Positions 5,155-41,932 of a stretch of 64,000 bases of DNA are shown one piece after another. The position numbers and the translations under genes are program-made. How positions within the stretch are numbered: position 1 is the stretch's first letter; each line of letters begins with the position of its first letter. The stretch comes from a candidate division TM6 bacterium GW2011_GWE2_36_25. Lineage in GTDB: Bacteria > Babelota > Babeliae > Babelales > UBA12409. The notes beneath the pieces are model-generated. The model made no database searches, was not told the DNA's origin, and worked only from the letters and a program-made list of their open reading frames with translations. The stretch covers positions 698 to 64,697 of the forward strand of contig LBRU01000009.1 of NCBI GenBank assembly GCA_000991575.1. Reading direction: 5' to 3'.

Positions 5155-5212
5155 ATACTTGTTTTTAACTTTTTCTTTTTGTTAATCTAGTAATTAGAAA
5201 AGGAAAGGGAAA

Positions 5213-5476: not shown

Positions 5477-5491
5477 AAAAGGAGTTGTGAG

Positions 5492-5782: not shown

Positions 5783-5835
5783 ATAAAAAATGAGTGGGCA
5801 CTAAAAATGCCACCACTCAAAAATAGGAGGTTATC

Positions 5836-6111: not shown

Positions 6112-6126
6112 TTATAAGGAGATATC

Positions 6127-6372
6127 ATGAAAAAGATTTTTATTTCATTACTTTTAATTATGTTATGTACCCCAAAACAAACTAAGCCTAACGGGGAAGG
6201 CCTTGGCATTGGTCTCGGCGTAGGCGCCTTAACCGGTATCGCCATTGGTGCCGCAGCTTCAAGATCTCGTGAACCAAAAGTAGTTTATGTAAGAGCGCCA
6301 GAAAACGATGAAGAAAATGATGAATACACTGATGACGATGATTACCAATCATTTGATGAACAAGATAATTAA
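6127..6372 (+). CDS. small secreted glycine-zipper protein with acidic tail
   Basis: RBS AAGGAG upstream, a signal peptide, a GLGIGLGVGALTGIAIGAAAS zipper, and an acidic C-terminus (ENDEENDEYTDDDDYQSFDEQDN). Its last codon and stop lie inside the repeat element beginning at about 6367. Confidence 0.5.
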   Translation: MKKIFISLLLIMLCTPKQTKPNGEGLGIGLGVGALTGIAIGAAASRSREPKVVYVRAPENDEENDEYTDDDDYQSFDEQDN

Positions 6373-6577
6373 GAACCTCGCAGCAAGCTACGAGGTATAA
6401 CGCTCGTATGGTTCGACTTGCTACATCCTGGGCAAAGTCGAAGGGTCACCACGAGCGCGCTCATCCTGATGCTTCGTCTGCGCTCAGCACTAAAGGCTGC
6501 GCTCATCCTGAGCTTGTCGAAGGATATGAGCGAATATAATGATTATGAAGCAAGCTTCGAGGAGTTTTACCTGTAAA
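6367..6577. repeat. composite hairpin-repeat element, family 1 (copy A, 211 bp, contains one 42-bp unit)
   Basis: It aligns end to end with the reverse complement of 20775-20943, with about 10 substitutions plus one extra 42-bp unit (TGCTTCGTCTGCGCTCAGCACTAAAGGCTGCGCTCATCCTGA). It contains the hairpin modules CGCTCGT...ACGAGCG and CGCTCAT-CCTGAG-CTTG-TCGAAGG-AT-ATGAGCG (6500-6532). Confidence 0.85.
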
Positions 6578-7791: not shown

Positions 7792-8004
7792 TATAGTAGG
7801 CCTTTTAATATATTATAGAATAATCTTCGAAATTTTAGAGATCTTTCTTTTATTAATATAGCTAAAAAAGACCATTCTGCCAAGAAAAAAGTTATCGCTC
7901 TCGCCCAACGCAAATAAAATTTTATAATTGACAAAAATTGATAATTTGGCATACTTATAATACAAATAAAATATAAAAGAATTTTTCTAAATGGAGGCTA
8001 TCAA

Positions 8005-10305: not shown

Positions 10306-10309
10306 TTCG

Positions 10310-11686
10310 TCAATGATTGCGCTGTTGTAAACCGAGCCAACGATCAAGAATAACTGCAGCCGCTGATCTTACCGAGAGATGATTAAAATCAGACAGCCCT
10401 TTAATTGGCATCAAGAGATAATCACATCGTTTTAAGACCGCATCTGCTAACCCGGATGCGGTTCCTAATAATAAGAGAACGGGACGTTCTTGTTTCCAAA
10501 CTATCTGTTGATCATAAAAAGTAATTTGAGGAATTTCAGCATGCTTTTTCGCTGAAGTTGCAATCAGCAAAGGATCTTTCCCTGTCTCGTTCTTAATTTT
10601 TTCAATCGTCTCATCTAATGATATTGATAAATCAACCAGCTGTACCGCCCGATGACGATGCAGATTATATTCTTTACCTTTGGTTGCCCAAAAATCGAGC
10701 AATGTTTGCGTAATCTTCTGCTGATCTTCCAGAGGGGTCACAATAAAATATTTTTTTAATCCATACGTTGCGGCTGAACGAGCAATGTCATGAATATCGA
10801 GAGACGTCACAGAACTGGTGCCCACCCGGTTTTCTTTTAAATTCACATCAACATGCATCAATGCAAGATAATGTGGCGGAATAATTTTTTGTGCCTCACT
10901 AACAAGACGCTCATTCAAGTCAAAAGAACGAAACCATTCAAAATGCCCCCCTAACAGCGTTCGTTTAAGCGCTTGTTCTTCACGCCATTCTGAAATTTTT
11001 TGATGATTTCCGGACCTGATAATTTCGGGAACTTCCATTCCTTGCCACTTCAATGGCTCGGTATATTCTGGATAATCAACCAACGGCCCAGAAAATGAGT
11101 CTTTTTCAACTGATTCGTCTTTACCCACAACCCCTGGAACATAACGCAAAACCGCCTCTAAAAGAACCATTGCGGGCAAATCGCCACCCATTAAGACATA
11201 ATCACCAATCGAAATGATCTCGTCAGCATAATGTGCCTCAACCCGCGCGTCCATTCCTTCATAACGGGCTGGCAACAGCATAATGTGCTGTTTTTCCTGT
11301 AAAACTTGTGAGATTCGTCTCGCATGAAATTGATTTAAGGGTGTCCCATGGGGTGAAAAGAAAATCTTGTACGAGCGGCCAAATTTTTGCTCCTGAGAGG
11401 CAATTGCACGCTCTAGTATATCAGGCTTAATAAGCATTCCAGCCCCAGGGCCAAAAGTCGGTGCATCTATCCTTTTTTTAGGCGCTGCAAAAGAGAATAG
11501 ATCGGTCACTTCTGAGGTAAAAATACCTTTTTCTTGTGCCCGACCTATTAAACTTTCTTTAAGAAACGGCTTATATAATTCAGGGAATAACGTTAGAATT
11601 GAAACATTCACGGGCTTATTTTGCCTCTTTTTCTTCCTTTTCAACATGAAGCTTTTTGGAAGCTTTTTCAGCTTTTGGCTCAGCAA
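10310..11686 (-). CDS. trmD: tRNA (guanine37-N1)-methyltransferase TrmD fused to a second SPOUT-type (PF09936-like) methyltransferase domain
   Basis: The N-terminal half (VSILTLFPELY...GDYVLMGGDLPAMVLLEAVLRYVPGV...) is TrmD. The C-terminal ~190 aa (LALMHVDV...VTSLDIHDIARSAATYGLKKYFIVTPL...LLLLGTASGL...NHLSVRSAAAVILDRWLG) resemble the stand-alone SPOUT family often encoded next to trmD. The annotated ATG overlaps rpsP; the true start is probably ATG 11647 or GTG 11611. Confidence 0.8.
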   Translation of the reverse strand: MLSQKLKKLPKSFMLKRKKKRQNKPVNVSILTLFPELYKPFLKESLIGRAQEKGIFTSEVTDLFSFAAPKKRIDAPTFGPGAGMLIKPDILERAIASQEQKFGRSYKIFFSPHGTPLNQFHARRISQVLQEKQHIMLLPARYEGMDARVEAHYADEIISIGDYVLMGGDLPAMVLLEAVLRYVPGVVGKDESVEKDSFSGPLVDYPEYTEPLKWQGMEVPEIIRSGNHQKISEWREEQALKRTLLGGHFEWFRSFDLNERLVSEAQKIIPPHYLALMHVDVNLKENRVGTSSVTSLDIHDIARSAATYGLKKYFIVTPLEDQQKITQTLLDFWATKGKEYNLHRHRAVQLVDLSISLDETIEKIKNETGKDPLLIATSAKKHAEIPQITFYDQQIVWKQERPVLLLLGTASGLADAVLKRCDYLLMPIKGLSDFNHLSVRSAAAVILDRWLGLQQRNH

Positions 11687-19710: not shown

Positions 19711-20190
19711 TTAGCCAATATGACAATCCATAACGCCTGATTGCACCATGCAATACAGAGCCTCATTAACAAACTCATCGCTTTCCATAATTTGTTTCTC
19801 TAAATTTTTTAATTTTAGAGAAAAATCTTTCCATCTTTGTTCAAGAAAAAGATATTTATCGCTATACACATGCTTATTCAGATCACGCACACAAGCCAAT
19901 AATGGATAAAGCGAATGACTAAACTTTTTTTGTACAGCAAAAATAATGTGTGATGTTTTCTTTAGAGACAAAATTTTTTCATAGAATTTGTGCAAAGCTT
20001 CAAATTCTTTTCTCAATTGAACATGCTCGCGATGCAGTGATATGAAGGCACAAGAAAAGATAATTGCACATACGCTCGATGTACAAACTACTTCAGGAGC
20101 AAAACTTTCAAGAAAATCCCTAGATAATCCAGAATAATTAGATTGGAAAATAAATAAGAATAATACCATCAACCACTTTTTACTTATCAT
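19711..20190 (-). CDS. hypothetical protein with N-terminal hydrophobic segments
   Basis: 159-aa ORF in the same orientation as the surrounding cluster. No family recognised. Confidence 0.4.
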   Translation of the reverse strand: MISKKWLMVLFLFIFQSNYSGLSRDFLESFAPEVVCTSSVCAIIFSCAFISLHREHVQLRKEFEALHKFYEKILSLKKTSHIIFAVQKKFSHSLYPLLACVRDLNKHVYSDKYLFLEQRWKDFSLKLKNLEKQIMESDEFVNEALYCMVQSGVMDCHIG

Positions 20191-22099: not shown

Positions 22100-24289
22100 A
22101 TGGATTTCGCTGAATTTTTATCAACCGAATTAAATAACGAACAACAAAAAGCGGTTAGGCATGCAAAAGGACCTCTTCTGGTTATTGCGGGTGCAGGCTC
22201 AGGCAAAACGCGTGTTATAACCAGTCGCATTATCAACCTTATACTCACCGAAAAAGTTACTCCAACTTCAATTATTGCATTAACGTTTACTAATAAAGCT
22301 GCCCAAGAAATGCGTGAACGCGTACAAAAAAGCATTGGCATACCGGCCACTCCTTTTAAAAATAACAGTTTTTTTATTGGAACTTTCCATTCTTATTGCT
22401 TGCGACTTCTTAAAAAAAATGCACACATTTTAAAACTCGATCATTTTTCCATTCTCGATGGCGATGATCAAATAAGCATGTTAAAGAAATTAGTTGATGC
22501 GCATTGCCCTAAAAAAATTCAACCACGCCAAGCTCTTTATCAAATATCCACCCTCAAAAACAATCTCCTCAACCAGCAAGAAACACTCATTGATCCTACC
22601 GTACAAGAACTTTATAATTTATATGAACACGAAAAAAGATTAAGCAACTGTTTAGATTTTGACGATTTACTCATTAAAGCACTTGAACTTTTCAGCTCAA
22701 AAAATTTTAAAACAGCACACCAAAATCATATTCGTCATGTTCTTGTTGATGAATATCAAGATACGAATGTTGTGCAAAATGAATTGCTCAAAGAAATGTG
22801 CCTCGATAAAAAAAAATTCATCATCGATTCACTCTGTGCCGTAGGAGATGAAGATCAATCTATTTACTCATGGCGTGGTGCAACGATTGATAATATGCTC
22901 AATTTCAAAAAAGATTTCCCCGGAACAACACTCATAAAAATTGAACAGAACTATCGCTCAGTAAAACCAATTCTTGAAGCGGCAAATCATATCATTAAAC
23001 ATAATCAAAATCGCCATCCGAAAAAATTGTGGTCAACACGTGAAGGCTCAAACAATATTTTGGAGCTTACGTGCATGTCCGGATTTCAAGAGGCGGATAT
23101 GATTGCGGCAAGTGCTTCATTGTTACAACAAAAAAATGAATTACAAAATTGTGCAGTCCTCTACCGCACCCATTTTCAATCACGTCTTATTGAAGAAGCA
23201 TTAATAAAAAAATCAATTCCGTACAAAATTATCGGCGGCATTCAATTTTATGAACGCAAAGAAATTAAAGACCTGCTCGCCTATTTACGTTTATTAATTA
23301 ATCCTTTTGATAGAATTGCGCTTTTTAGAATACTCAACTGCCCTCCTCGCAGATTGGGTGACAAATTCGCAGAACAATTTCAAAAAGCATGGGAACAAGA
23401 ACCATTTCAAACATTTACTGATATTGCACAAAAACTTTTAGAAGATTTAAAACCTCAACAAAAAAGCAACCTTGAAGATTTTATTAATATTTTCTCATCG
23501 ATAGATCTCTCTTTTTCCCCTGCGCACGCAATCAACCACATGAGCAAAAAATGTGGTTACCTCACTTATCTTAAGGAAGAGTACGAACCCCAAGAAGCAG
23601 AGGCACGCATTCAAAACATTCAAGAATTAATTAATGCTGCTCGCTATTTTGAAGAACAGGGATTAGAAACCACTGAACAATTTCTTCAAGAAATTGCCCT
23701 TTTACAAGATAAAATTAACCAAGAAAATAACACGAACGAACGCCTAACCCTCATGACTATTCACGCAGCAAAAGGACTCGAATTTGACACAATCATTCTT
23801 GCAGGGCTCGAAGAAGGACTCTTGCCCAGTTCAAAATCCCTCGAAAATGAGTCAAATATCGAAGAAGAGCGACGATTATTATATGTAGGTATCACAAGGG
23901 CACGCAAAAAATTAATTCTCTTACAAGCAGGATATCGACACACTTTCGGTTCTATGACTTATCAACAACCCTCTCGCTTCCTCAAAGAACTACCCAATAC
24001 GGGCATTCAGAGGGAAGATTGCTCATATTGGAAAGAATGTCAGACAATTCAATTTTTACGCAGTTTTTTCGGCATAATAGCACCAGAACAGTCAATCCAA
24101 ACCTTTGGCCCCGCAAAAAAATTTAAGGCAGCCTCTAAAAAAGATCTGCACTCGTATCCTTCGACAAGCTCAGGACGAGCGCAGCCTTTAGTGCTGAGCG
24201 AAGCCGAAGCATCAGGACGAGCGCAGCCTTTAGTGCTGAGCGAAGCCGAAGCATCAGGACGAGCGCAGCAGGACGAGCGCAGCCTTTAG
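22100..24289 (+). CDS. uvrD: UvrD/PcrA-family ATP-dependent DNA helicase, helicase core; reading frame terminated inside a repeat array
   Basis: Motif I GAGSGKT, motif II VDEYQDTN, YRS, and motifs V/VI (TIHAAKGLEF...YVGITRARKKL). The final ~45 aa are translated repeat (SGRAQPLVLSEAEA). The TAG stop at 24287-24289 is created by a 14-nt partial repeat unit. Confidence 0.9.
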   Translation: MDFAEFLSTELNNEQQKAVRHAKGPLLVIAGAGSGKTRVITSRIINLILTEKVTPTSIIALTFTNKAAQEMRERVQKSIGIPATPFKNNSFFIGTFHSYCLRLLKKNAHILKLDHFSILDGDDQISMLKKLVDAHCPKKIQPRQALYQISTLKNNLLNQQETLIDPTVQELYNLYEHEKRLSNCLDFDDLLIKALELFSSKNFKTAHQNHIRHVLVDEYQDTNVVQNELLKEMCLDKKKFIIDSLCAVGDEDQSIYSWRGATIDNMLNFKKDFPGTTLIKIEQNYRSVKPILEAANHIIKHNQNRHPKKLWSTREGSNNILELTCMSGFQEADMIAASASLLQQKNELQNCAVLYRTHFQSRLIEEALIKKSIPYKIIGGIQFYERKEIKDLLAYLRLLINPFDRIALFRILNCPPRRLGDKFAEQFQKAWEQEPFQTFTDIAQKLLEDLKPQQKSNLEDFINIFSSIDLSFSPAHAINHMSKKCGYLTYLKEEYEPQEAEARIQNIQELINAARYFEEQGLETTEQFLQEIALLQDKINQENNTNERLTLMTIHAAKGLEFDTIILAGLEEGLLPSSKSLENESNIEEERRLLYVGITRARKKLILLQAGYRHTFGSMTYQQPSRFLKELPNTGIQREDCSYWKECQTIQFLRSFFGIIAPEQSIQTFGPAKKFKAASKKDLHSYPSTSSGRAQPLVLSEAEASGRAQPLVLSEAEASGRAQQDERSL

Positions 24290-24644
24290 TGCTGAGCGAA
24301 GCCGAAGCATCAGGACGAGCGCAGCCTTTAGTGCTGAGCGAAGCCGAAGCATCAGAACGAGCGCAGCCTTTAGTGCTGAGCGAAGCCGAAGCATCAGGAC
24401 GAGCGCAGTCTTTAGTGTTGAGCGAAATCGAAGTATCCGCGCAACCCTCAAGAGAAAGCCATTTTTCAATTCAACATTCCTCTAACAAAAATTTCAATCA
24501 CCAAAAAATAAATTTTTCTGCGAAACACAATACTCCAATAAATAACGATCTAAAAAAGAATAGCAATTACCCCCATAATTCAATTAACACAAAATTAAAA
24601 ACGCACAACGACGCGCTCGTCCTGAGCTTGTCGAAGGATACGAG
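24151..24644. repeat. repeat-bounded insertion inside uvrD/pcrA: 32-bp perfect inverted repeats (24151-24182 / 24613-24644) enclosing a 42-bp tandem array and an AT-rich core
   Basis: Left arm CTCGTATCCTTCGACAAGCTCAGGACGAGCGC is the exact reverse complement of right arm GCGCTCGTCCTGAGCTTGTCGAAGGATACGAG. Both are family-1 hairpin modules. Confidence 0.85.
24171..24436 (+). repeat. 42-bp tandem repeat array (6 units plus one 14-nt partial unit at 24255-24268)
   Basis: The unit is CAGGACGAGCGCAGCCTTTAGTGCTGAGCGAAGCCGAAGCAT. Units start at 24171, 24213, 24269, 24311, 24353 and 24395 (the last is degenerate). Confidence 0.9.
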
Positions 24645-24828
24645 CACATCGATGTGCTTTCAAAAATGTGAATACTCATGGAAAAAGCATCAACCGGTTA
24701 CGCACAAAACATTTGGTGTTGGAGTAATTCAAGATGTAGAAAAAAGGCCGGATGGTTCAACACACATCACGGCCAAATTTAAAAATGGTATCAAAAAAAT
24801 TGATAGCAAATTTTTAGAAGCAGTTTAA
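24289..24828 (+). CDS. uvrD: detached C-terminal segment of the same UvrD/PcrA helicase (different frame)
   Basis: It ends in WKKHQPVTHKTFGVGVIQDVEKRPDGSTHITAKFKNGIKKIDSKFLEAV. This is the conserved PcrA/UvrD C-terminal Tudor-like domain (W..G..V.H..FG.G.V......V.F...G.K.L...F). It has no start codon or RBS of its own other than a GTG inside the repeat. Confidence 0.7.
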   Translation: MLSEAEASGRAQPLVLSEAEASERAQPLVLSEAEASGRAQSLVLSEIEVSAQPSRESHFSIQHSSNKNFNHQKINFSAKHNTPINNDLKKNSNYPHNSINTKLKTHNDALVLSLSKDTSTSMCFQKCEYSWKKHQPVTHKTFGVGVIQDVEKRPDGSTHITAKFKNGIKKIDSKFLEAV

Positions 24829-28377: not shown

Positions 28378-29508
28378 TTAATGAAACATAGTATTATAAA
28401 AACATTCTTTAATAGATTGTTGAACCTTTAAGTCTTTTGCATCAGCGATCAACTTATCAACAAACAGATCTTGTGCACTTTTTTCTTCGGGCTCAAGAAT
28501 CTGATGACGGAACACCTTAAAATTTTCATTTGGCTCACAAACTACTTCTGGATCCATCACAATACGTTTTTCAACTAAACCAACTCCCGTTATCTTCTCA
28601 ATTATCGCTGCTAAAGGCTTCCATAGCCGATGATGTTCTAGAGGGGTCCCGCCCGAAATAGCTGTATAAACCAATTGAGGAATTAACTCATTTTGTATAA
28701 GAAAATGCAAAAATAAACCATTTTTTATTCTTGGTATCTCAGTATCAGGAAAAGACAAATTATAATCACTAAGTAAAGATTTTAATAAAGTCCTAAGTGG
28801 AAGATTCACTGATCGACTTTTCGTATAAAGATGAAGGAAAAAATAAAACCATGGCTCCCTGGCAGCTGAAAGAATTTCTGTCCGTACAAAATCATCAGCA
28901 TCATGTATTCTACCAGGCCTCATCTTTTTGTATTCTTCCACGGTCATTCCTCTTAAATGTTCTACTTTTTTACGCGAACGAAGAAATTCAAAATCCTTAG
29001 GCTCCACCCCAGTCTGTAATTGATAAAGCTTTTTTTGCAAGTCTAATAAAAGAGCAATTCTGCCATCTGCAGCATGAAAAAATGATGTATAACCCGGATA
29101 TTTAACCTCGGTTTCAATTATTTGGGCAATTAATTCTGTAACATTTTCATAATGCTTAGGCTTAAGTAAACATGGATGCTTAATCAAAGAAAGAAATCTA
29201 AGAGCAGACAACAATGGTAATTGCATTTTTATAAATTCGCGAAGGTTGAACTTTTTACATCGAAAAGGAGACGCAATCAACCAAGGGAACAATCCTTTCT
29301 CATACAAAAGATTAAATCTTCCCACCTTTTCAACTAATCGACGATATGTTGTCGAACATTGTTCAAGTTCATCACTTTTTTGTTTATCTTTAATTGCCTG
29401 AAACAATCGCAATCCGGCCCCGGCACGATATAATCCACCAAACATCCCATAAGATTGTGGCACTAATAATAAAAGTCCTAAAAATATAAAACGGAAAATC
29501 ATGTTCAA
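28378..29508 (-). CDS. hypothetical secreted protein
   Basis: Signal peptide MNMIFRFIFLGLLLLVPQSYG. Length 376 aa. No family recognised. Confidence 0.45.
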   Translation of the reverse strand: MNMIFRFIFLGLLLLVPQSYGMFGGLYRAGAGLRLFQAIKDKQKSDELEQCSTTYRRLVEKVGRFNLLYEKGLFPWLIASPFRCKKFNLREFIKMQLPLLSALRFLSLIKHPCLLKPKHYENVTELIAQIIETEVKYPGYTSFFHAADGRIALLLDLQKKLYQLQTGVEPKDFEFLRSRKKVEHLRGMTVEEYKKMRPGRIHDADDFVRTEILSAAREPWFYFFLHLYTKSRSVNLPLRTLLKSLLSDYNLSFPDTEIPRIKNGLFLHFLIQNELIPQLVYTAISGGTPLEHHRLWKPLAAIIEKITGVGLVEKRIVMDPEVVCEPNENFKVFRHQILEPEEKSAQDLFVDKLIADAKDLKVQQSIKECFYNTMFH

Positions 29509-29620: not shown

Positions 29621-29986
29621 TCATCTATCTGAACAGCTTTTTTCATGCCTTAAACAGTGATAAAGATCATAAAATCCACTCTTGCAAAATCTACAGAAAA
29701 AATTTTTCTTTTGCAGATGAACTCTTTCAATGTGTGGCCATACATCTCGGGCTCTTGAAAGCATTTTTTTACACATAAGACATTGTCTGGGAGAGAATTC
29801 ATCAACCTTTTCAATTTTGAGTAACTCAGCCCAAAATGAAGAATGTCTTTTAATTTTTATCATTAAATAAGTTTTTATCTCGGGAGACAACAAATCTTCT
29901 TCTTGAGAATTTTCTGATCGATCCATTGCACACGCGCAGGAAACCAAATATAAAAAAAATAAAAATCGATTTCTCATATGAAACAC
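29621..29986 (-). CDS. secreted protein with two eukaryote-type C2H2/C2HC zinc fingers
   Basis: It has a signal peptide. Finger 1 is CLMC-x12-H-x4-H (CLMCKKMLSRARDVWPHIERVH). Finger 2 is CRFC-x12-H-x3-C (CRFCKSGFYDLYHCLRHEKSC). Confidence 0.6.
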   Translation of the reverse strand: MFHMRNRFLFFLYLVSCACAMDRSENSQEEDLLSPEIKTYLMIKIKRHSSFWAELLKIEKVDEFSPRQCLMCKKMLSRARDVWPHIERVHLQKKNFFCRFCKSGFYDLYHCLRHEKSCSDR

Positions 29987-29989
29987 AAA

Positions 29990-30379
29990 TTATCTTTGAT
30001 GCACAAATTCATGCGCATCCCGATTGTACTTTGTGCTATAGAATTTTTCACAAAAGTGACATTTAAAGGGTTTTAATTTTTGATGAGTCCTTTCATGCCG
30101 TTCACACTTTGATCTAATGTCAAAAATTTTACCACATACGGAACATGCAAAGGGCACTTTCTCACATTTTTGCGTACACAACTTCGGCCCTTCACCCACC
30201 TTGTCAGTATCAATCATTTTTCGTCTTTTTTCAGGTTTTTCTTCATGTGCTGCACGAGAAAACATTACTAAACTTTCGGCTGCACGAACATCATGTGATG
30301 TAAGCCTTGTATCTCGTTTCTCCATAGCATTAACTGAAAATACGGCGTAAAATAACATTAAAATAATATTTTTTTTCAT
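29990..30379 (-). CDS. secreted protein with two classical C2H2 zinc fingers
   Basis: It has a signal peptide. CSVCGKIFDIRSKCERHERTH and CHFCEKFYSTKYNRDAHEFVH both fit C-x2-C-x12-H-x3-H exactly. They are joined by a TGEKP-like linker (HQKLKPFKC). Confidence 0.7.
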   Translation of the reverse strand: MKKNIILMLFYAVFSVNAMEKRDTRLTSHDVRAAESLVMFSRAAHEEKPEKRRKMIDTDKVGEGPKLCTQKCEKVPFACSVCGKIFDIRSKCERHERTHQKLKPFKCHFCEKFYSTKYNRDAHEFVHQR

Positions 30380-30443
30380 AATTATAAATCCTTATTTTCT
30401 TTTTCTTTTTTTACATAACTGCAAGTCTTTTTCATAAAAACGC

Positions 30444-31190
30444 TCATTTAAATCTTCCTCTTAAAATGGCAACTTGAATTGCAAATCGAACGCTCTTACC
30501 TATTTTCAACTTCAAGGCTTCAAGGCTTCCTTTTATATTAAGATTGAGTTTTTTCTCATGAGAAACTAACACTCGCAACTCTTCAAAAATACGCATGTCT
30601 TTTATAACCACATTAAATTGAGTCCGAGGATTAGAACTTACAATAGTCCCCCGAGCAAAAAGCCAAAGAGGAGGATGTTTAATACATTCAAACGCTTCGA
30701 CTATGCTGTTTCTCAGGTGTTCTACAATGACCGGATCATCGGTAGTTTTCAAAATGTGATCTATTTGTTTTACAATCAATCGCACAAGCATGTGATCTTT
30801 TTCGCAAACCACACGCTCCAGATGATTAATACCTATATCTGAAATGATACGAGCCCCTTTATCAAGAAGAAATTTAACTAGGTGATAATTTTTTTGACTA
30901 ATAGCGATCGCTAAAGGAGTTTCACCTCTTCCATCTATCGCATTAACATCAGCCCCTTTTTGCACAAGCACCCGCGCCATATCATACTGCTTATTCTCAA
31001 TAGCACATATCAATACAGTTATTCCATTTTGCTGAGACTCTAACAAAGATCTATCTTGTTCATACTGAGCGATTACGCTCTCAATATTTCCATTTTTAAT
31101 AGCTTCAAAAAATACTATTCTTGATTCCATTGCAGAACAACAGAAAGCAAAAAATAAAACAGATACAAATAGCAGTTTGCACAATTTCAT
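30444..31190 (-). CDS. secreted ankyrin-repeat protein
   Basis: Signal peptide plus ANK repeats (GITVLICAIENKQYDMARVLVQKGADVNAIDGRGETPLAIAISQKNYHLVKFLLDKGA). Confidence 0.8.
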   Translation of the reverse strand: MKLCKLLFVSVLFFAFCCSAMESRIVFFEAIKNGNIESVIAQYEQDRSLLESQQNGITVLICAIENKQYDMARVLVQKGADVNAIDGRGETPLAIAISQKNYHLVKFLLDKGARIISDIGINHLERVVCEKDHMLVRLIVKQIDHILKTTDDPVIVEHLRNSIVEAFECIKHPPLWLFARGTIVSSNPRTQFNVVIKDMRIFEELRVLVSHEKKLNLNIKGSLEALKLKIGKSVRFAIQVAILRGRFK

Positions 31191-34364: not shown

Positions 34365-35727
34365 TTGCATTCTTATTTTATTTGGTGCCTTGGGTGATTT
34401 GGCAAAGAAAAAAATTATTCCGGCGCTCTATTCACTAGTACACAAAGAGCAGCTCGACAATTTACACATCATCGGCACTGATTTAGCAAATATCTCAAAA
34501 CATAACATGCTCAAAGCTGCACAAGAACTTTTGCCTGAAATCGATGAAAAAACATGGCATGCATTTGAACAAATTACACATTATCAGCAACTCGATATTA
34601 ATAATTTAGAAGACTTTAAAAAACTAAAAGAATTTATTGAGGTTATAGAAAAGAAACACAATCTTTCTGGAAATCGATTAATATATTGTGCGACACCATC
34701 AGATCTTTTTAGCACGATTACCAAACAGAGTCATGCTGCCCGCATTATTACCTGCACGTCAATTGAAGAAAGACCATGGCAACGCATTATTTATGAAAAA
34801 CCTTTCGGGCGTGATTACACATCGGCAAAAAAACTTAATAAAGAAATTCACAATTGCCTCAATGAGACACAAGTTTATCGCGTTGATCATTATCTCGCAA
34901 AAGAGCTTATTGCCAATATCACGTTACTGAGATTCACCAATCGAATGCTTGAACCGCAATGGAATCATCATGACATTGCATCGGTAGAAATTATTTTAGA
35001 TGAAGAAATCGGTGTAGCACATCGTGGAAATTATTATAATCAAACAGGCGCTCTTCGCGATGTGGTACAAAATCACATATTTGAACTTCTTGCGTTAGTA
35101 AGCATGGAACCACCGACGACTATTACCGGATCAGACTTACAAGAAAAACGTGCTGAGGTTCTCAAAAATCTTTCTTTCGACAGCGGCATTCTCGGACAAT
35201 ATGAAGGATTTCGTACAATCGATGGTGTAAAAAAAGATTCTATGACAGAAACGTTTGCAGCTCTAAAACTCTTTGTTAATAACGAACGCTGGAAAGGTGT
35301 TCCTTTTTACATTCGTACGGGCAAATGTTTACAAAAAACTAAAAAATTAATTCATCTCAATTTTAAACCAGAACATTGTCGTTTAATCGCCGGCTGTCCA
35401 TTACCCGCAAACCGTTTAACCATTGCTATTGAACCTCACGCAGGATTTTCGCTTGAACTTAATGCAAAAAAACCTGGTTACACAACTACCGTTGTTCCTA
35501 TCACGATGGAATTTTGTCATGAATGTTTATTCGGCGTTTATACACCTCAGGCATATGAAGTAATTTTATTAGAAGTCATTGATGGCGACCAAGGAATCTC
35601 GGTCCGCTTTGATGAAATTGAATACAGCTGGAAAATTATTGATGAAATTTATCGCAAACAATTACCTCTCTATTTTTATAAATGCGGAAGCAATGGACCA
35701 GATGAAGAATTTGAGGGAAAAATATGA
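34357..35727 (+). CDS. zwf: glucose-6-phosphate 1-dehydrogenase
   Basis: N-terminal LFGALGDLAKKKIIPALY, the active-site motif RVDHYLAKE, and EKPFG. It overlaps pgi by 8 nt. Confidence 0.9.
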   Translation: MRDCILILFGALGDLAKKKIIPALYSLVHKEQLDNLHIIGTDLANISKHNMLKAAQELLPEIDEKTWHAFEQITHYQQLDINNLEDFKKLKEFIEVIEKKHNLSGNRLIYCATPSDLFSTITKQSHAARIITCTSIEERPWQRIIYEKPFGRDYTSAKKLNKEIHNCLNETQVYRVDHYLAKELIANITLLRFTNRMLEPQWNHHDIASVEIILDEEIGVAHRGNYYNQTGALRDVVQNHIFELLALVSMEPPTTITGSDLQEKRAEVLKNLSFDSGILGQYEGFRTIDGVKKDSMTETFAALKLFVNNERWKGVPFYIRTGKCLQKTKKLIHLNFKPEHCRLIAGCPLPANRLTIAIEPHAGFSLELNAKKPGYTTTVVPITMEFCHECLFGVYTPQAYEVILLEVIDGDQGISVRFDEIEYSWKIIDEIYRKQLPLYFYKCGSNGPDEEFEGKI

Positions 35728-36716
35728 AGATCGGCATCATTGGTTTAGGAAAAATGGGAAGCGCAATTGCCACACGACTTGCACAAGGAGATCATGATGT
35801 TATTGGTTATGATCCACATGTAAAAATAACCATTAACCGGGTAAAACAAGTTGACGCACTCCAAGCAATCACTCAACAAGAGATTATTTGGCTTATGGTT
35901 CCTGCAGAAGCCATTGATAAAATCTTGCAAGAACTTACACCCCATTTAATTGAAAAAAACATATTGAAAGGCTGCGCTCGTCCTGATGCTTCGTCTACGC
36001 TCAGCACTAAAGGCTGCGCTCGTCCTGATGCTTCGTCTACGCTCAGCACTAAAGGCTGCGCTCGTCCTGAGCTTGTAATTATTGATGGCGGAAACAGTTT
36101 TTATAAAGATTCTAAAAGACGTGCAAGCACATTGGCAAAATCAAACATTTTTTATCTTGATTGTGGAACCTCTGGTGGCATTCATGGATTAAAAGATGGT
36201 TTTTGTTTAATGATCGGTGGCAATGAAGATGCATTTAAAAAAGCAGAACCCATTTTCGAAACAATTGCAGCAAAAGATGGTTATGCCCTAGTTGGTCCTT
36301 CTGGCGCAGGTCATTATGTCAAAATGGTGCATAATGGAATTGAATACGCGTTACTCCAAAGTTATGCAGAGGGCTTTTCAATTTTACACGCAAGCCGACA
36401 ATTTCCCCATTTAAATTTAGAACAAATAAGTGGCTTATGGATGCATGGTTCAATTATACGTTCCTTTTTACTTGAATTAACTCATGAAATTTTTAAAGAA
36501 AAAATAGATTTTAACAAAATTAAAGGAATAATTGGAGAAAGTGGCACTGGTAGATGGGCACAAGAAGAAGCAAATTTATTAGGCCTTAATACACCGGCGC
36601 TTGAAAGTGCTTTGAAAACGAGAAAAGAATCACAGATAAAGGGCGACTCGTTTACCATGAAACTCATCGCCCTTTTACGAAATAAATTTGGTGGCCATCC
36701 TGTTGAAAAAGAATAA
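35724..36716 (+). CDS. gnd: 6-phosphogluconate dehydrogenase (short, YqeC/Gnd-like form) carrying an in-frame repeat insertion
   Basis: MKIGIIGLGKMGSAIA Rossmann start, IIDGGNS, GTSGG and GAGHYVKMVHNGIEYA. A 36-aa insert (KGCARPDASSTLST x2 plus KGCARPEL) sits directly before IIDGGNS. Confidence 0.85.
   Translation: MKIGIIGLGKMGSAIATRLAQGDHDVIGYDPHVKITINRVKQVDALQAITQQEIIWLMVPAEAIDKILQELTPHLIEKNILKGCARPDASSTLSTKGCARPDASSTLSTKGCARPELVIIDGGNSFYKDSKRRASTLAKSNIFYLDCGTSGGIHGLKDGFCLMIGGNEDAFKKAEPIFETIAAKDGYALVGPSGAGHYVKMVHNGIEYALLQSYAEGFSILHASRQFPHLNLEQISGLWMHGSIIRSFLLELTHEIFKEKIDFNKIKGIIGESGTGRWAQEEANLLGLNTPALESALKTRKESQIKGDSFTMKLIALLRNKFGGHPVEKE
35967..36076 (-). repeat. 42-bp unit array (about 2.6 units) inside gnd, opposite orientation to the uvrD array
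   Basis: ATGCTTCGTCTACGCTCAGCACTAAAGGCTGCGCTCGTCCTG occurs at 35986-36027 and 36028-36069, with partial units on both sides. It is the reverse complement of the 24171-24436 unit with 3-4 substitutions. Confidence 0.85.
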
Positions 36717-36720
36717 AATC

Positions 36721-37620
36721 TTACATAAATTTTCTAAATAATTTGCGTAATACACAAAAAGAACCATAGAGTACTGCAGGATACAAAAATGTATGCACCT
36801 GCTCCACACGACGCACCTGTTTAAATGCGTCCTCAAATTGTTCAAACGGTGGTTGAAATGACGTTAAATCTACTTCTTCTGATTTAGCAGATGCTGTTAA
36901 TAACCCATGTTTCTGAAGAATTGTACTCATGACTCTATCTTTGTATGGTCTCAAATATAAATGACGACTACTGTCATCATGAACAAAATAAACATTTTTA
37001 TTGCCATTTTTTTTCAATGCATAATATAACGCTTTTGCATGTACATCAGGTAAAATACAATCTCTCATTGCATGCATGATAACAATAGGACACTCGGTAC
37101 TAATTCTTGAGACTGATTTTATCGGTTGCCTTCCAATGGGACGATAAAACGGATGCCATAATTTTACGATATAAGGCATCCAATATGCCGATAATGGTAA
37201 TTTTGGCAATCCAACTAAAAAGCTTTCTGAAACATCTTTTATTGCCAAATTAGCAGAAGCAAAGGCTCCTTCTAAAAAGACTCCTTTTATACGAGCATCA
37301 TCTTGATGATCAGCAAAAAAATTGAGTGCGGTTGCACCACCATTGCACACGCCATAAATTATGCCCTCTTTTGAAATATCAGAACTCAACCTGCGTCCAC
37401 TCCAAAACTGTCCTAAATCTTTTAGAAACAATGGAAAACTCTCAACAAAAATTATATCAGTTTTATCAGAATCCAATGTTTTTTTTAAATAGGATGTAAA
37501 CTCCCTAAATCTGTCTCCTCTACACCCAGGAGCCGCATACACAGTCAATTTTTTTGAGTCTTTTTCCATTCCAAAGAGACTGCATGAAAAAAGTAAAATG
37601 GAAACTAAATATTTTTTCAT
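36721..37620 (-). CDS. secreted alpha/beta hydrolase, dienelactone-hydrolase-like (G-x-C-x-G nucleophile elbow)
   Basis: Start placed at MKKYLVSILLFSCSLFG (ATG 37620), preceded by GGAGGTTAAT. The track start 37716 overlaps the upstream gene. The GVCNGG elbow suggests a Cys nucleophile as in dienelactone hydrolases. Confidence 0.45.
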   Translation of the reverse strand: MKKYLVSILLFSCSLFGMEKDSKKLTVYAAPGCRGDRFREFTSYLKKTLDSDKTDIIFVESFPLFLKDLGQFWSGRRLSSDISKEGIIYGVCNGGATALNFFADHQDDARIKGVFLEGAFASANLAIKDVSESFLVGLPKLPLSAYWMPYIVKLWHPFYRPIGRQPIKSVSRISTECPIVIMHAMRDCILPDVHAKALYYALKKNGNKNVYFVHDDSSRHLYLRPYKDRVMSTILQKHGLLTASAKSEEVDLTSFQPPFEQFEDAFKQVRRVEQVHTFLYPAVLYGSFCVLRKLFRKFM

Positions 37621-37639: not shown

Positions 37640-38680
37640 TTAGCTAGGACGACATCCTGGAAGACCATGATCATCTTCATGATCGCGCTCTCGAGACTCC
37701 GGTTCTCGACCATCAAAAATTCTCTCTAACGCTTCAAGCCTATGACGCAGTTCTATCGCCGCAACGAGCTCACGCGCACGAGCATAAACTCGGTCACGCT
37801 CTGTAAGCGCATGAACAAGTGACAACATTGAACCCAAAATCTCATTATCAGCTGAAGCTTCTTCATGCCCTGCTCGGCCAACAAAACTACTGCGCGGTTC
37901 TTCGGAATTTCGATTTGAAGATAATCCTCTAACAAATCCGCTTGCAAACCTTCTTTCCGCATCTCTACGTCGTGCAGCTAAACCAATTTCTTCAGTTCTG
38001 CCGCGTTCGGATAAATCATTTCTAGCAACTGATCGAGAACTCTCTTCCAATGCAGCTTCCAAATCACGTTCTTCAGCTCTCTCTGAACGATGATCCCCCA
38101 AACCAAAAAATCCTCTTGCAAATCTTCTTTCTGCAGCCCTGCGACGCTCAGCTAAATCACGAGCTTCTGCATCTCTGCGGCTCTCAGCCAATATACGCAC
38201 AAAATCGTGATCGTGGGGATATGATTCATCACTTTCTAATTCATCGTGAGCCGAAGGCCTCACAAGTATTATACCAGGACCTACTTCTCTTACTTCACGT
38301 CCTTCTGAGGCAAATATTGAAAGAAGCGTCGGCAAATCTAATCCATGATCATCATCTGAACGAACACGCACATACTCTTTCTCTAACTCATCTTTAAGTG
38401 GCTTACGGCATACTGGACACCCATAAACACCAACGCCCTCTTTAAGTTGCCTTGTCAAACATTCCTTGTGAAAAATATGTCTTGCGTCACCATCTTCACA
38501 TAATTCTTCACATGTAAGAATAGCTTCCGACGGTTCAATATCACTTAAACAAATTGGACATGTAGCGGTCTTAACTTCTTCAACTTCCGCTGGAATCTCT
38601 TTTTTACCATCAACCTCTTTTTCTTTCCTTGCGTTAATGGAAAAAATTAATAACAACATACAAATAGATAACTTTTTCAT
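37640..38680 (-). CDS. secreted RING-like (RING-H2-type) zinc-finger protein with Arg/Glu-rich repeat tail
   Basis: It has a signal peptide. The motif CPIC-x12-C-x3-C-x6-H-x2-H-x2-C-x13-CPVC resembles a cross-brace RING. The C-terminal half contains the duplicated segment RRRAAERRFARGF / RRRDAERRFASGF and is visibly more GC-rich than its surroundings. Confidence 0.55.
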   Translation of the reverse strand: MKKLSICMLLLIFSINARKEKEVDGKKEIPAEVEEVKTATCPICLSDIEPSEAILTCEELCEDGDARHIFHKECLTRQLKEGVGVYGCPVCRKPLKDELEKEYVRVRSDDDHGLDLPTLLSIFASEGREVREVGPGIILVRPSAHDELESDESYPHDHDFVRILAESRRDAEARDLAERRRAAERRFARGFFGLGDHRSERAEERDLEAALEESSRSVARNDLSERGRTEEIGLAARRRDAERRFASGFVRGLSSNRNSEEPRSSFVGRAGHEEASADNEILGSMLSLVHALTERDRVYARARELVAAIELRHRLEALERIFDGREPESRERDHEDDHGLPGCRPS

Positions 38681-38778
38681 AAAATTCCTTTTTAAAAAAT
38701 AAACATTAAAATCATCATTTAGAATAGCAGAATTGACAGAATTGTCAAATAGAAATTATAAAGATTTGCACATTTAGA

Positions 38779-39078
38779 TTAAAAATTTAAGAAGGCCGCT
38801 AGCGGAATGAGTTCTTGATCAATTCGCTTTTTAAACGAATTATCAATTTTATTGTATTGAATAATGTCCACCGTGAAAGGAAGATCACTTTCTTCAAATT
38901 TTTCTTTGAGAAGTTCATATTCGTAATCAGATATATCACTTTTAAGACAAATATCTAAATCTGAAAAAGGTCTCTGTGTCCCCTTTGCTCTTGAACCAAA
39001 CACATAAACCTGATCGTAATCTTTTAAAATAGTACGAAGAATATCAATGTCTTCAGAGGATATGCCATGTTTTTTCAT
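38779..39078 (-). CDS. minimal nucleotidyltransferase (MNT/MntA-type antitoxin)
   Basis: VYVFGSRAKGTQRPFSDLDI matches the GSxxxG...DxD NTase signature. It is 99 aa long and overlaps the upstream HEPN gene by 4 nt. Confidence 0.8.
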   Translation of the reverse strand: MKKHGISSEDIDILRTILKDYDQVYVFGSRAKGTQRPFSDLDICLKSDISDYEYELLKEKFEESDLPFTVDIIQYNKIDNSFKKRIDQELIPLAAFLNF

Positions 39079-39536
39079 AAATTTTTAATCTGATCTATTA
39101 TTTTTGATAACTGCTTTTGAAAATGAGGCAAAAATTCAAAAATCTCTTTCGCATACATCTCACTATAAATATGCGTCGTCATATTACGTTTTTTTATTAC
39201 CTCAAACCAAATTTTAGGATCTTCAATTAGATGTTCTTTTGCTGCTTCACGAAAAACATCACGCGGATTATTAATATTCAAGCCTTTAAATGCAAGAACT
39301 TTTTTGAGCATCTTCCATAATAATTCATAGGTAAACTCAAATCGCTGAATTGCCCCATCTCGTTCCAATTGCGTTTGAGCCTTAGCGACAGCTTCATCAA
39401 ATGCTCGTTGCGCTTTTATAAGCGGCGCAATATTAATTTTTCCATTCAAAATAGTTATTTCATCCGTCACAGAACCCCTCAAATTATTATCATAATGATC
39501 AGCGTAACAGGAACAAAAAAGAAAACAACTTGGCAA
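39075..39536 (-). CDS. HEPN-domain protein (HI0074/NTase-substrate-binding family; HepT-type toxin)
   Basis: It carries the R-x4-H-x-Y motif (KKRNMTTHIYS) and the FEFTYELLWKMLKKVL helix typical of the HI0074 family. The true start is probably downstream of the annotated ATG. Confidence 0.7.
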   Translation of the reverse strand: MPSCFLFCSCYADHYDNNLRGSVTDEITILNGKINIAPLIKAQRAFDEAVAKAQTQLERDGAIQRFEFTYELLWKMLKKVLAFKGLNINNPRDVFREAAKEHLIEDPKIWFEVIKKRNMTTHIYSEMYAKEIFEFLPHFQKQLSKIIDQIKNL

Positions 39537-39577: not shown

Positions 39578-40402
39578 ATGATGCATCATTATTTCTCTCT
39601 TCTTCATATTTTTTCTTGGTTAGATTGCGTTGAAATTTTGTTTTTCACATTTATCATCTTCAAATTTAGTCGATGGTTGCGACAAGATCAACGAAGTAAT
39701 CTGCTCGGTTATTTTTATTTGGGTGCAACAGGACTTCTCTTGGCACACTTATTTGACCTGGAAGCTATCAAACAATTTTATCAGATAAGCTGGCCTATTA
39801 TGTTGATGATTTTCATCATAATTCATCAAAAGAGTCTACAAAAAAATTTCGTTGCTGCACGAACGTTGACGCCAGCTAAATATCCGGAGCAAGGTTCCTG
39901 GCTCTCATTAATCATGGGCGCTGCATTCAAAGGACTTCAACATAAAAAAAATCTTACCTTTGTTATTGAAGGAAAAGATGAACTTGAAGAATTCATTAAT
40001 AAACCCATTACCGTTAATAGCCCTATTCAAGAATCACTTCTCAATATGATCATCGAAAGTTCAATTACTCAATCAGAAACCATGATATTACTCACCCATT
40101 ATGGAAAATTAATCGGACTCAATGGCTCTTGGCAAAAAGAAATCGATCCACTCTGGTTAGATAAAAAATATGAAACGTACGAAATATGGGAACAAGGAGC
40201 TCTTTATTGGAGTCATCACATTGATGCACTCGTTTTTCAAGCTGATCCATTAACAAAAACAATTACGCTTATTGCCCGCGGAACGAGGGTTCCTCTGCTC
40301 ACCAGTGATAAAGCGACTTCAATCATTGAACAATATATCCGCAAAAACCAATTACCACCCCTACAAAAAAAGACACAATCGCAAGAAGGAGCTCTTTCAT
40401 GA
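39578..40402 (+). CDS. CdaA-like membrane protein (diadenylate-cyclase fold, catalytic motifs not conserved)
   Basis: The 3-TM N-terminus aligns with CdaA (VEILFFTFIIFKF... IIIHQKSLQKNF versus B. subtilis VDILLVWYVIYKL... IIIFQPELRRAL). In the C-terminal domain, the positions of DGA and RHR read SET and SHH. Confidence 0.45.
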   Translation: MMHHYFSLLHIFSWLDCVEILFFTFIIFKFSRWLRQDQRSNLLGYFYLGATGLLLAHLFDLEAIKQFYQISWPIMLMIFIIIHQKSLQKNFVAARTLTPAKYPEQGSWLSLIMGAAFKGLQHKKNLTFVIEGKDELEEFINKPITVNSPIQESLLNMIIESSITQSETMILLTHYGKLIGLNGSWQKEIDPLWLDKKYETYEIWEQGALYWSHHIDALVFQADPLTKTITLIARGTRVPLLTSDKATSIIEQYIRKNQLPPLQKKTQSQEGALS

Positions 40403-40749
40403 ACAATCTTAAATCTATTTTATGCTCAAATTATGTTACCTTTGCGTGCGCATTAATCTTGGGTTACAGTTTATGGCTCATGTTATCTCACAATCAAATT
40501 ATTCAACAAAAAATTACTATTCCCGTAACGATTTACAAAACAAAGAACACGGTAGATATCACCACCTCGATTGAAGCCATGATTGAAGGAGCTCGTCATC
40601 AACTCAGATCAATGTATTATCATCCACCAAAAGTGGCCATTTATCGCGATGAACGCCCCGGAAATCCTGTTCAAATTTATGCAGATGATATTTTGTTACC
40701 TGAAACTTTAAGCGTCATCAATTATTGGCCACACGAAATTACAAACTAA
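40399..40749 (+). CDS. short YbbR/CdaR-like membrane protein
   Basis: There is a 4-nt overlap with the CdaA-like gene. An N-terminal TM (FACALILGYSLWLML) is followed by a beta-rich segment (ITIPVTIY), the usual CdaA-CdaR arrangement. Confidence 0.35.
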   Translation: MNNLKSILCSNYVTFACALILGYSLWLMLSHNQIIQQKITIPVTIYKTKNTVDITTSIEAMIEGARHQLRSMYYHPPKVAIYRDERPGNPVQIYADDILLPETLSVINYWPHEITN

Positions 40750-40837: not shown

Positions 40838-41932
40838 TTATAAACCTAAGCGTGCAGATAAAGAACATACCAATGGAATAGAAACCAAAGTCAAGCCGTA
40901 ATTTATCAAATCAACTCCAAGATTAGGTGAAATTTTCGCTGAAATAAAACCAGAAGAGAATGCATAAAGACCTATTATTAGAAAAGTAGATTTACTTGGT
41001 ACATCGAATATCTGATGCATCCCTAAAGCAAATTCTCTTTGAACATAACCTCTTAATGTTAATCGCCTATCGGTTTGAATACCAATCGAACTTCCTTCTC
41101 GTGCTAACACTGAATATAAGGATGATGCAAACATAGGAAACCTAACTGCAAAATCACATTCAGTCATTTGATCACGTTTATCAGCAAGTTCCTTGCCCAA
41201 ATATCTCAGAACATCATATTCAGCAAATTCCTTAAAAAGAGTGTCAAAATCTTGATAATTCAAAGAATTAATCAATCCTTCCCTCAAACTATGTATTACT
41301 AAAAATTGTCCTATTGTTCTCACTGTTACCGAAGGTACTCGTAAACCCTCCAGACTGAAATCTTCCACCATTGGTTGACATGGCAATAATAAATTGCGCT
41401 CAAAACGCTTCTTTAAAAAACCATCAACAAGAAATTTAAGACCCTTTTTTTCACATTGTGCATAAGATTCTTTTGTGCAACGCATTAACTGTCTATATCT
41501 TTTTACAAATTCTTGTAAACAAGAAAGCGCTCTTAAAATATCCAAAATCTCATCCTTAATAAGTTGCATACAAAAATAATCTGCAAGACGATAACACTCT
41601 AAAAGATTTTCTAAACTCATCTTAGACATCTGAGATTTTCTACTTGTTGAATCATTCAGCAATGAAACAAATAATTCAATTATCTCTGAAGGTGCATCAA
41701 CATCAAGGCATTCATCTTTAAACAAAGGTAATGTTTCACGAGCAAGCGTTCCTGATTCAAAAAGCTCTCTCCCCTCTGATTGAAATGCCGTTCGTGGTAA
41801 AAAACTATCAAAAAGAACAGCATCAACTACAAATTCTTTTCCATCAGAACTCTTTAATTTAATGTCATTGGCATCTAAACCAAATATAGTTAAACATCCC
41901 AACCAAAGCGCCAATATATTATATTTTTTCAT
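40838..41932 (-). CDS. secreted/membrane protein with N-terminal Skp1/BTB-POZ-like domain
   Basis: Start placed at MKKYNILALWLG (ATG 41932), preceded by AGGGGTGAT. IKLKSSDGKEFVVD... strongly recalls the Skp1 N-terminus (IKLQSSDGEIFEVD). There are hydrophobic C-terminal segments. Confidence 0.4.
   Translation of the reverse strand: MKKYNILALWLGCLTIFGLDANDIKLKSSDGKEFVVDAVLFDSFLPRTAFQSEGRELFESGTLARETLPLFKDECLDVDAPSEIIELFVSLLNDSTSRKSQMSKMSLENLLECYRLADYFCMQLIKDEILDILRALSCLQEFVKRYRQLMRCTKESYAQCEKKGLKFLVDGFLKKRFERNLLLPCQPMVEDFSLEGLRVPSVTVRTIGQFLVIHSLREGLINSLNYQDFDTLFKEFAEYDVLRYLGKELADKRDQMTECDFAVRFPMFASSLYSVLAREGSSIGIQTDRRLTLRGYVQREFALGMHQIFDVPSKSTFLIIGLYAFSSGFISAKISPNLGVDLINYGLTLVSIPLVCSLSARLGL

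Follow-up and report, generated by a model that had tools for sequence, protein, structure and literature searches.

What is a gene for a secreted, RING-like zinc-finger protein doing in a bacterial chromosome? The question is raised by a 346-residue protein encoded in a 64,000-nucleotide stretch of contig LBRU01000009.1 (positions 698 to 64,697, forward strand; hereafter the window) from candidate division TM6 bacterium GW2011_GWE2_36_25. An original prediction, made from the letters of this DNA, had placed a RING-H2-like cluster of cysteines and histidines behind a signal peptide and ahead of a charged, duplicated tail, and had proposed manipulation of host ubiquitination. Here we describe a predicted RING-H2 domain of the type found in eukaryotic ubiquitin ligases (E3s) and a conserved cysteine four residues from the C-terminus that resembles a CaaX box, and we weigh whether the protein may act as a membrane-tethered ligase inside a host.

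The product of this gene has an identical entry at NCBI, a "hypothetical protein" from metagenome-assembled genomes of Candidatus Dependentiae (TM6), and we found the same protein on 21 contigs from NCBI, JGI and ENA assemblies, groundwater metagenomes included. The window itself is an ordinary Dependentiae chromosome, with rpoB/rpoC, pnp, RNase PH, holA, PGI, G6PD, YidC, RecR and TrmD; scattered among these housekeeping genes are many signal-peptide proteins with eukaryote-like domains (ankyrin, C2H2). Members of the Dependentiae are obligate intracellular parasites of protists (PMC4378268, PMC6561590), and a role in host ubiquitination, as judged from the sequence, would fit such an organism. 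The peptide quoted in the original prediction matches the translation of the open reading frame (ORF) exactly. From its N-terminus, which looks like a signal peptide, the protein runs through a RING-H2 domain into a tail that is rich in Arg, Glu and Ala and contains an internal duplication. The features that concern its N-terminal half are:

37640..38680, minus strand: RING gene, 346 aa (ORF listing)
38630..38680, minus strand: signal-peptide-like N-terminus, residues 1-17 (MKK, 13 hydrophobic residues, INA/RK; hydropathy)
38408..38560, minus strand: RING-H2 domain, residues 41-91 (Pfam PF13639, PDB profile matches, AlphaFold, Foldseek)
38480..38509, minus strand: insertion EELCEDGDAR between ligands C3 and H4, residues 58-67, with auxiliary C61 (alignment to canonical RING-H2 proteins)
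38363..38404, minus strand: post-RING extension KPLKxELExxYxR, residues 93-106, its P and R nearly invariant (family alignments)

A RING-H2 domain with an unusual insertion

The cluster comprises nine cysteines and histidines in RING-H2 order (C41, C44, C57, C61, H68, H71, C74, C88 and C91), of which eight form the C-C-C-H-H-C-C-C series of zinc ligands, C61 being extra, with the spacing C-x2-C-x12-C-x10-H-x2-H-x2-C-x13-C-x2-C. The RING-H2-like order claimed for it is borne out by several searches. Residues 40-92 match Pfam zf-RING_2 (PF13639) with 29.5 bits against a gathering threshold of 27.3 (E = 9.3e-7), so that the Pfam check suggested in the original prediction comes out in its favour; the Prok-RING families (PF14446 and PF14447; Prok-RING_1 and Prok-RING_4) stayed below threshold in the same protein, at 10.1 bits versus 29.1 and 17.1 versus 27, respectively. 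A profile of the RING family matched 128 sequences in the PDB, the top ones all RING E3s, with RNF4 (9.5e-20) and Arkadia (2.9e-13) the best and RNF165, RNF126, RNF24 and RLIM also present.

Structure prediction gave the same picture. An AlphaFold model of the RING domain, built from 28 aligned sequences, has a predicted local distance difference test score (pLDDT) of 89.9 and the expected strand-strand-helix order. With this model Foldseek retrieved almost only RING domains from the PDB, among them RNF4, RNF126, AO7, Arkadia, RNF165, RMR1, EL5, RNF12 and RNF13, with probabilities of up to 1.00, target-normalised template-modelling scores of 0.5-0.76 and root-mean-square deviations of 2-3.5 Å; the E-values are modest (7.9e-3 or weaker) because the domain is small. 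In BFVD, giant-virus RING proteins rank highest. A non-RING fold, the outcome that had been named as fatal to the idea, is thus not what the model predicts. Several of the positions through which RING domains contact ubiquitin-conjugating enzymes (E2s), as judged from sequence and established RING-E2 structures, are filled, with I43 following the first ligand, P89/V90 the seventh and the linchpin R92 the eighth; the tryptophan position of the E2-binding helix holds Gln78. Profile matches and model together indicate a genuine RING-H2 fold that has residues for contact with an E2, rather than a mere zinc ribbon.

We wondered how far this domain extends beyond the window. Run exhaustively against 1.84 billion representatives, phmmer gave 34 matches at E <= 1e-3, none of which reaches past residue 147; seven close relatives (45-52% identity) match within residues 1-121, which take in the signal peptide, the RING domain and the post-RING extension. 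Starting from four family sequences, a locus search found one locus in genome contigs and 14 in metagenome contigs, three or four of them true family members. The C3-H4 spacing had been called atypical, and it is, at ten residues compared with the canonical one to three. The insertion responsible is common to the Dependentiae family and absent from the canonical RING-H2 rows of the alignment, and in the AlphaFold model it forms a short helix and a loop that lie between the two strands. Across the family, seven of the eight ligands vary hardly or not at all; most members have C57, the usual C3, and about half have C61. These alignments mark the C3-x10-H4 spacing as a trait of a small, Dependentiae-restricted family.

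On L010, a contig from a related Dependentiae genome, four or five RING paralogues stand in tandem, together with a copy split by a frameshift. The array (3074-3568 and 8518-10746 of that contig) includes a C-terminal fragment and two copies with CaaX-like endings. The split copy, made up of family member P0003 and a 126-aa ORF that ends in GCPIQ, has a tail similar to those of P0004 and P0006; it could be either a pseudogene or an assembly indel.

A conserved cysteine four residues from the C-terminus

The RING protein ends in GLPGCRPS followed by the stop codon, which puts Cys343 exactly at position -4:

37643..37654, minus strand: CaaX-like box CRPS, residues 343-346, after the acidic stretch ERDHEDDHGLPG (Cys at -4 in relatives)

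The original prediction missed this conserved C-terminal motif, which is a new observation. Seven of ten close relatives have a cysteine at -4 although their tails do not align; the endings are CRPS in the query, CQIQ in P0004, CPIQ in the split copy on L010, CHMQ in P0013, CSIM in P0007, and CSIL twice, in P0036/L013 and in an L010 paralogue. The context is shared too, with an acidic run leading into G-x-P/G-x-C-x-x-X. Of these boxes, CSIM is that of prelamin A. Isoleucine or methionine at a2, together with glutamine, methionine or leucine at X, are classical determinants of farnesylation or geranylgeranylation, and the relatives' boxes (CSIM, CSIL, CQIQ, CPIQ and CHMQ) have isoleucine or methionine at a2.

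The bias is not confined to the RING family. Among 99 non-overlapping ORFs of at least 100 aa, drawn from the window and three related loci (L010, L011 and L027), ten have a cysteine at -4 where 1.4 are expected (P = 1.4e-6), compared with 0-4 for each of the nine remaining terminal positions and none at -3, -5, -6 or -7. With the RING family removed, the count is still six of 95 (P = 0.002), and several of the ORFs concerned also start with a signal-peptide-like sequence. Read at this level, the enrichment suggests a wider use of CaaX boxes in the clade.

Further ORFs with a cysteine at -4 include 19711-20190 in the window (ending CHIG), 5490-6482 (CASI) and 5003-5611 (GCQLC) on L010, and 7992-8366 (CFGV) on L011. 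We considered ORF 29621-29986 of the window, which ends in CSDR, as another candidate and rejected it: its cysteine probably belongs to a terminal zinc-finger-like cluster of cysteines and histidines, and CSDR breaks the farnesyltransferase rules.

Export and a proposed route to host membranes

Strongly hydrophobic 11-residue windows at the N-terminus of the RING protein begin only at residues 2-8, and no 17-residue window reaches transmembrane level by hydropathy. A hydrophobic stretch of this length falls short of a transmembrane helix, so that a cleavable signal peptide is plausibly a better reading of the N-terminus than a membrane anchor. The N-terminus is kept in family members, and the signal peptide that had been claimed is plausible, given the N-terminal hydropathy peak. 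In Babela massiliensis, of the same phylum, type II was the only secretion system found, and signal-peptide ankyrin proteins are thought to enter the amoeba cytoplasm (PMC4378268). Type II secretion genes are core in TM6 genomes (PMC4776705), and in C. destructans (Chromulinavorax) 44% of coding sequences carry signal peptides and vesicles bud from the bacterium (PMC6561590).

Many signal-peptide-like N-termini in these genomes end in a junction of a small residue, methionine and an acidic residue (FAME, FAMD, SAME, CAMD, FGME); carriers are window ORFs 29990, 30444, 29621 and 36721 and the RING-family members P0004-P0013, while the query has INA-RK instead. The junction may serve as a cleavage or sorting signal particular to this lineage, or mark an internal start.

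From these elements we propose the following route. The Sec signal peptide would export the protein from the bacterial cytoplasm, with release by type II secretion or vesicles. In the host cytosol, the RING-H2 domain would bind E2~ubiquitin through I43, P89/V90 and R92 and promote ubiquitin transfer, as its fold and residues suggest. Host farnesyltransferase would then prenylate Cys343 within CRPS, tethering the protein to a host membrane; we infer this last step because the cysteine at -4 is conserved in relatives. The charged, fast-evolving tail of about 230 residues, which holds the RING domain, would probably provide spacing, substrate contacts or both. We give this complete chain, a Sec/type II-exported RING-H2 E3 that recruits host E2~ubiquitin and is host-prenylated at Cys343, a probability of roughly 0.55; that the protein is a host-directed, RING E3-like effector is, taken by itself, more probable than that.

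Weighing the alternatives

Several observations weigh against the complete chain. Two of them are general: the tail is without a detectable homologue in the exhaustive phmmer search, and a zinc finger would have to traverse the periplasm and then the vacuolar membrane. The remainder concern the CaaX-like box, the RING domain and the place where the protein acts, and we take them in that order.

The alternative that survives best, which we nevertheless consider unlikely, keeps the RING-H2 effector and denies that CRPS functions in prenylation; if the protein is targeted to membranes at all, this would then be achieved otherwise, for example by the charged and aromatic RRFxxGF repeats of the tail, and the relatives' cysteine at -4 would matter to them only. 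Lacking aliphatic residues at a1 and a2, where it has R and P, CRPS is the least canonical box in the family. The family is not uniform either, as P0006 ends in GCPR, with the cysteine at -3 and the stop codon verified in the DNA, and P0005 and P0008 have no terminal cysteine. We found no score for CRPS, or for the relatives' motifs, in the supplements of farnesyltransferase screens, and no paper linking Dependentiae to CaaX boxes or prenylation in the literature searched. Against this reading, the cysteine and its acidic G-x-P/G-x-C context are kept across tails that cannot be aligned, and the enrichment is specific to -4. Moreover, yeast farnesyltransferase accepts most CXXX sequences except those with D, E, K or R at a2 or K, P or R at X (PMC10320760), restrictive rules of which CRPS, with proline at a2 and serine at X, breaks none.

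Could the domain instead be a pseudo-E3, binding host E2s or other proteins non-catalytically as an E2 trap or scaffold? This reading, which we regard as improbable, ascribes a loss of catalysis to the insertion and to variable ligands. The C57-x10-H68 gap (or C61-x6-H68, if the auxiliary cysteine is counted) lies outside the canonical range; P0004 and P0006 have no C3 altogether, with neither C57 nor C61; some paralogues carry N, S or G in place of the linchpin arginine; and in the query Gln78, four residues after C6, replaces the tryptophan of the E2-binding helix. The query itself, by contrast, retains eight ligands, I43, P89 and R92 in a confident model, and RNF4, which it matches best in sequence, is active as an E3 with a polar residue, serine, at the same tryptophan position.

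A third reading, very improbable in our judgement, confines the protein to the bacterial envelope, where it would bind zinc in the periplasm or from a membrane anchor, or would belong to a prokaryotic RING system, with no contact with host ubiquitin. A signal peptide does lead to the periplasm, prokaryotic RING families exist, and the protein has weak, sub-threshold matches to Prok-RING_4 and Prok-RING_1. These scores are far below cutoff, however, whereas the eukaryotic-type zf-RING_2 model passes. Pfam and neighbourhood scans found no gene for a ubiquitin-activating enzyme (E1), an E2 or a JAB-like protein among the neighbours of the RING gene, which lies among signal-peptide proteins with eukaryote-like domains (ankyrin, C2H2 and Skp1-like), and we know of no bacterial role for a cysteine motif at -4.

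The composition of the gene bears on a last reading, recent horizontal acquisition or contamination of the assembly with eukaryotic DNA. The RING gene is indeed richer in GC than its neighbours, as had been claimed, with 43.3% compared with 31-41% in 30 other genes and about 36% in its surroundings, and with local values of up to 49.5% in windows of 200 nt. It is the first two codon positions that carry this excess (0.66 and 0.50 in the tail), because the tail is rich in codons for R, E, A, G and D. The codon-usage comparison proposed alongside the original prediction gives no foreign signature: GC content at the third codon position (GC3) is 0.24 against a background of 0.21-0.36, and arginine codon usage resembles that of neighbouring genes. 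Relatives, furthermore, occupy the same syntenic neighbourhood in related genomes; P0006 follows two small genes, where the window has its nucleotidyltransferase pair, and precedes PGI, which makes it the corresponding slot, P0005 adjoins the CdaA/YbbR-like pair, and P0008 lies beside DUF502 on a 609-kb contig. With native GC3 and syntenic relatives, the high GC content is therefore not evidence of recent foreign origin, and that part of the original prediction falls. Recent transfer or contamination, which could appeal to the GC content and to a RING-H2 type that is ultimately eukaryotic, is effectively excluded by this codon usage and synteny, by the identical protein on 21 bacterial contigs from several samples, and by a bacterial Shine-Dalgarno sequence and promoter-like site at the locus. 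The domain type is ultimately eukaryotic, yet the gene is long resident in this clade. Its DNA is identical in all nine sister loci, an identity that is therefore uninformative about selection.

A charged tail with an internal duplication

Residues 116-346 are 17% R, 15% E, 11% A, 7% G and 7% D, in agreement with the Arg/Glu/Asp/Ala-rich tail described previously. The duplication reported for this tail is likewise there:

38084..38191, minus strand: tail repeat copy 1, residues 164-199, LAESRRDAEARDLAERRRAAERRFARGFFGLGDHRS (self-alignment; DNA repeat D3)
37907..38014, minus strand: tail repeat copy 2, residues 223-258, LSERGRTEEIGLAARRRDAERRFASGFVRGLSSNRN (self-alignment; DNA repeat)

The 36-aa self-alignment, with the core LAxRRRxAERRFAxGF, scores 67, above all of 1000 composition-preserving shuffles (32.6 +/- 6.1, maximum 61), and the DNA holds a 55-nt pair that is 80% identical with a spacing of 174 nt (58 codons). 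The tails of the closest relatives barely align and differ in length, the whole proteins ranging from 182 to 346 aa.

A GC-rich 42-nt tandem repeat with the unit GCATCAGGACGAGCGCAGCCTTTAGTGCTGAGCGAAGCCGAA occurs elsewhere in the window, at 24166-24437 and 35967-36074, in opposite orientations. About 6.5 copies span the junction of ORFs 22100-24289 and 24289-24828, and about 2.6 copies lie in-frame within a 6-phosphogluconate-dehydrogenase-like gene (35724-36716), which in sister contigs encodes 329, 333 or 343 aa or is split; the copy number may differ between samples. We tried this minisatellite as a source of the tail and rejected it, as the two align with a score of 16-17, no better than the mean of 17.1 for shuffled sequences.

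Neighbouring genes

Three further features lie close to the RING gene:

38721..38748, minus strand: promoter-like site TTGACA-16-(TG)TATTCT (consensus match only)
36721..37620, minus strand: alpha/beta-hydrolase-like signal-peptide protein with a GVCNGG nucleophile elbow (weak Pfam hydrolase matches below cutoff)
40838..41932, minus strand: protein with Skp1-like N-terminal domain, signal peptide and two C-terminal hydrophobic segments (SKP1 motif, Foldseek, hydropathy)

The promoter-like site, about 40 nt upstream of the ATG of the RING gene, matches at 10 of 12 positions with an extended -10 TG and is the best consensus match in the region. Downstream, a gap of 19 nt with a GGAGG Shine-Dalgarno sequence separates the RING gene from the hydrolase-like gene, and we found no terminator-like site between them; this arrangement suggests that the two are probably co-transcribed. 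The Gly-x-Cys-x-Gly elbow of the hydrolase-like protein recalls dienelactone hydrolases, and its C-terminus is hydrophobic, then basic, ending in FLYPAVLYGSFCVLRKLFRKFM.

The original prediction had linked the RING protein to a Skp1/BTB-like neighbour at 40838-41932, a claim for which our evidence is mixed. This protein shares IKLxSSDGxxFxVD (14 residues) with the N-terminus of human SKP1, and when its single-sequence AlphaFold model, of low confidence (pLDDT 43), was submitted to Foldseek, all 50 of the top 50 matches were Skp1 or Elongin C, with probabilities of 0.69-0.99; no Pfam family or PDB sequence match was found. A Skp1-like fold is probable on this low-confidence model, and a bacterial Skp1 mimic that is secreted and membrane-anchored would be unusual if true. 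We also tested whether this 374-aa protein is a paralogue of the 376-aa ORF at 28378-29508 and found no paralogy. NCBIfam had no match for the RING protein, the downstream hydrolase or the Skp1-like protein.

Other genes of the window deserve mention. Directly upstream of the RING gene, 38779-39536 (minus strand) encodes an overlapping pair of a nucleotidyltransferase (NTP_transf_2/Polbeta) and a substrate-binding/HepT-like protein, the arrangement of MNT-HEPN type toxin-antitoxin systems. On the plus strand, at 39578-40749, a strongly diverged CdaA-like protein (TIGR00159 gives 23 bits, the cutoff being 189) is encoded ahead of a small one; this pair (about 271-279 and 115-120 aa) recurs in all related loci, adjoining variable effector-like genes. 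A cluster of signal-peptide proteins with eukaryote-like domains lies at 29621-31190 (minus strand), with ankyrin repeats at 30444-31190, C2H2-type zinc fingers at 29990-30379 and a small Cys/His-rich protein at 29621-29986; the contig of P0006 shows a similar ankyrin-to-C2H2 gene order. Finally, the 766-aa product of 8005-10305 (plus strand) resembles a signal peptide at its N-terminus and has an AAA ATPase domain in its C-terminal part, and the gene contains an 81-nt tandem repeat at 8148-8299; in Babela, signal-peptide AAA proteins joined to Ulp1-like peptidases make up an expanded family (PMC4378268).

Relation to known ubiquitin ligases and effectors

With eukaryotic RING-H2 E3s (RNF4, Arkadia/RNF111, RNF165/Ark2C, RNF126 and EL5) the query shares the C3H2C3 order, the predicted beta-beta-alpha fold, the isoleucine after C1, the proline after C7 and the linchpin arginine after C8. 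It differs from them in its ten-residue C3-H4 gap, in being a bacterial gene product with a Sec-type signal, and in its non-homologous R/E-rich repeat tail and CaaX-like C-terminus. The bacterial Prok-RING_1 and Prok-RING_4 families are also RING-like and zinc-binding, whereas the query matches the eukaryotic-type model instead.

E3-like and host-lipidated effectors are well known from Legionella, Salmonella and Chlamydiae, where type III or type IV injection delivers them. One that resembles the query in logic is AnkB of Legionella pneumophila, in which an F-box and ankyrin repeats are combined with a CaaX motif; it hijacks host ubiquitination and is anchored to a host or vacuolar membrane through its host-farnesylated CaaX box (PMC2916131, PMC7830128). 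AnkB, however, works as an F-box adaptor dependent on host Skp1-Cul1-Rbx1 and is delivered by type IV injection, whereas the query has its own RING domain and a Sec signal, and the two are not homologous. GobX, also from Legionella, is likewise a single-polypeptide E3 effector targeted to membranes by host lipidation (PMC7830128); it differs in its zinc-free U-box, in being S-palmitoylated rather than prenylated, in its Golgi targeting and in being a Dot/Icm substrate, and again there is no homology. Closer in lifestyle, Babela massiliensis encodes "a RING finger domain protein" (PMC4378268) and Neochlamydia has the RING/U-box NEX1b proteins (PMC4209131); both organisms are amoeba-associated and obligately intracellular, and both sets of proteins are read as E3 mimics, noted at the level of domain annotation, with no CaaX motif reported for them. 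The NEX1b proteins, unlike the query, carry leucine-rich repeats and type III secretion signals.

Implications for Dependentiae

The strategy outlined here, a bacterial E3 mimic combined with host lipidation, is known; what is new is the lineage and the arrangement. A true RING-H2 domain is found in a phylum that seemingly relies on Sec and type II secretion, not on injection systems. As Dependentiae appear to have only these two, we tentatively suggest, at clearly less than even odds, that their effectors bear a two-part address, in which a signal peptide takes the protein out and a host-lipidated CaaX box places it on membranes; the RING family would then be the first self-contained RING E3 known to be tethered in this way and, with its Skp1-like neighbour, would form part of a membrane-bound ubiquitin toolkit. 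Should the CaaX reading fail, the gene would still be a clean, if unsurprising, bacterial RING mimic. The pairing of CaaX-like ends with signal peptides is the most interesting lead: if true, it would allow Dependentiae effectors to be recognised by a simple rule on their sequence, and would give a concrete, testable example of how uncultured parasites may place enzymes on the membranes of their hosts.

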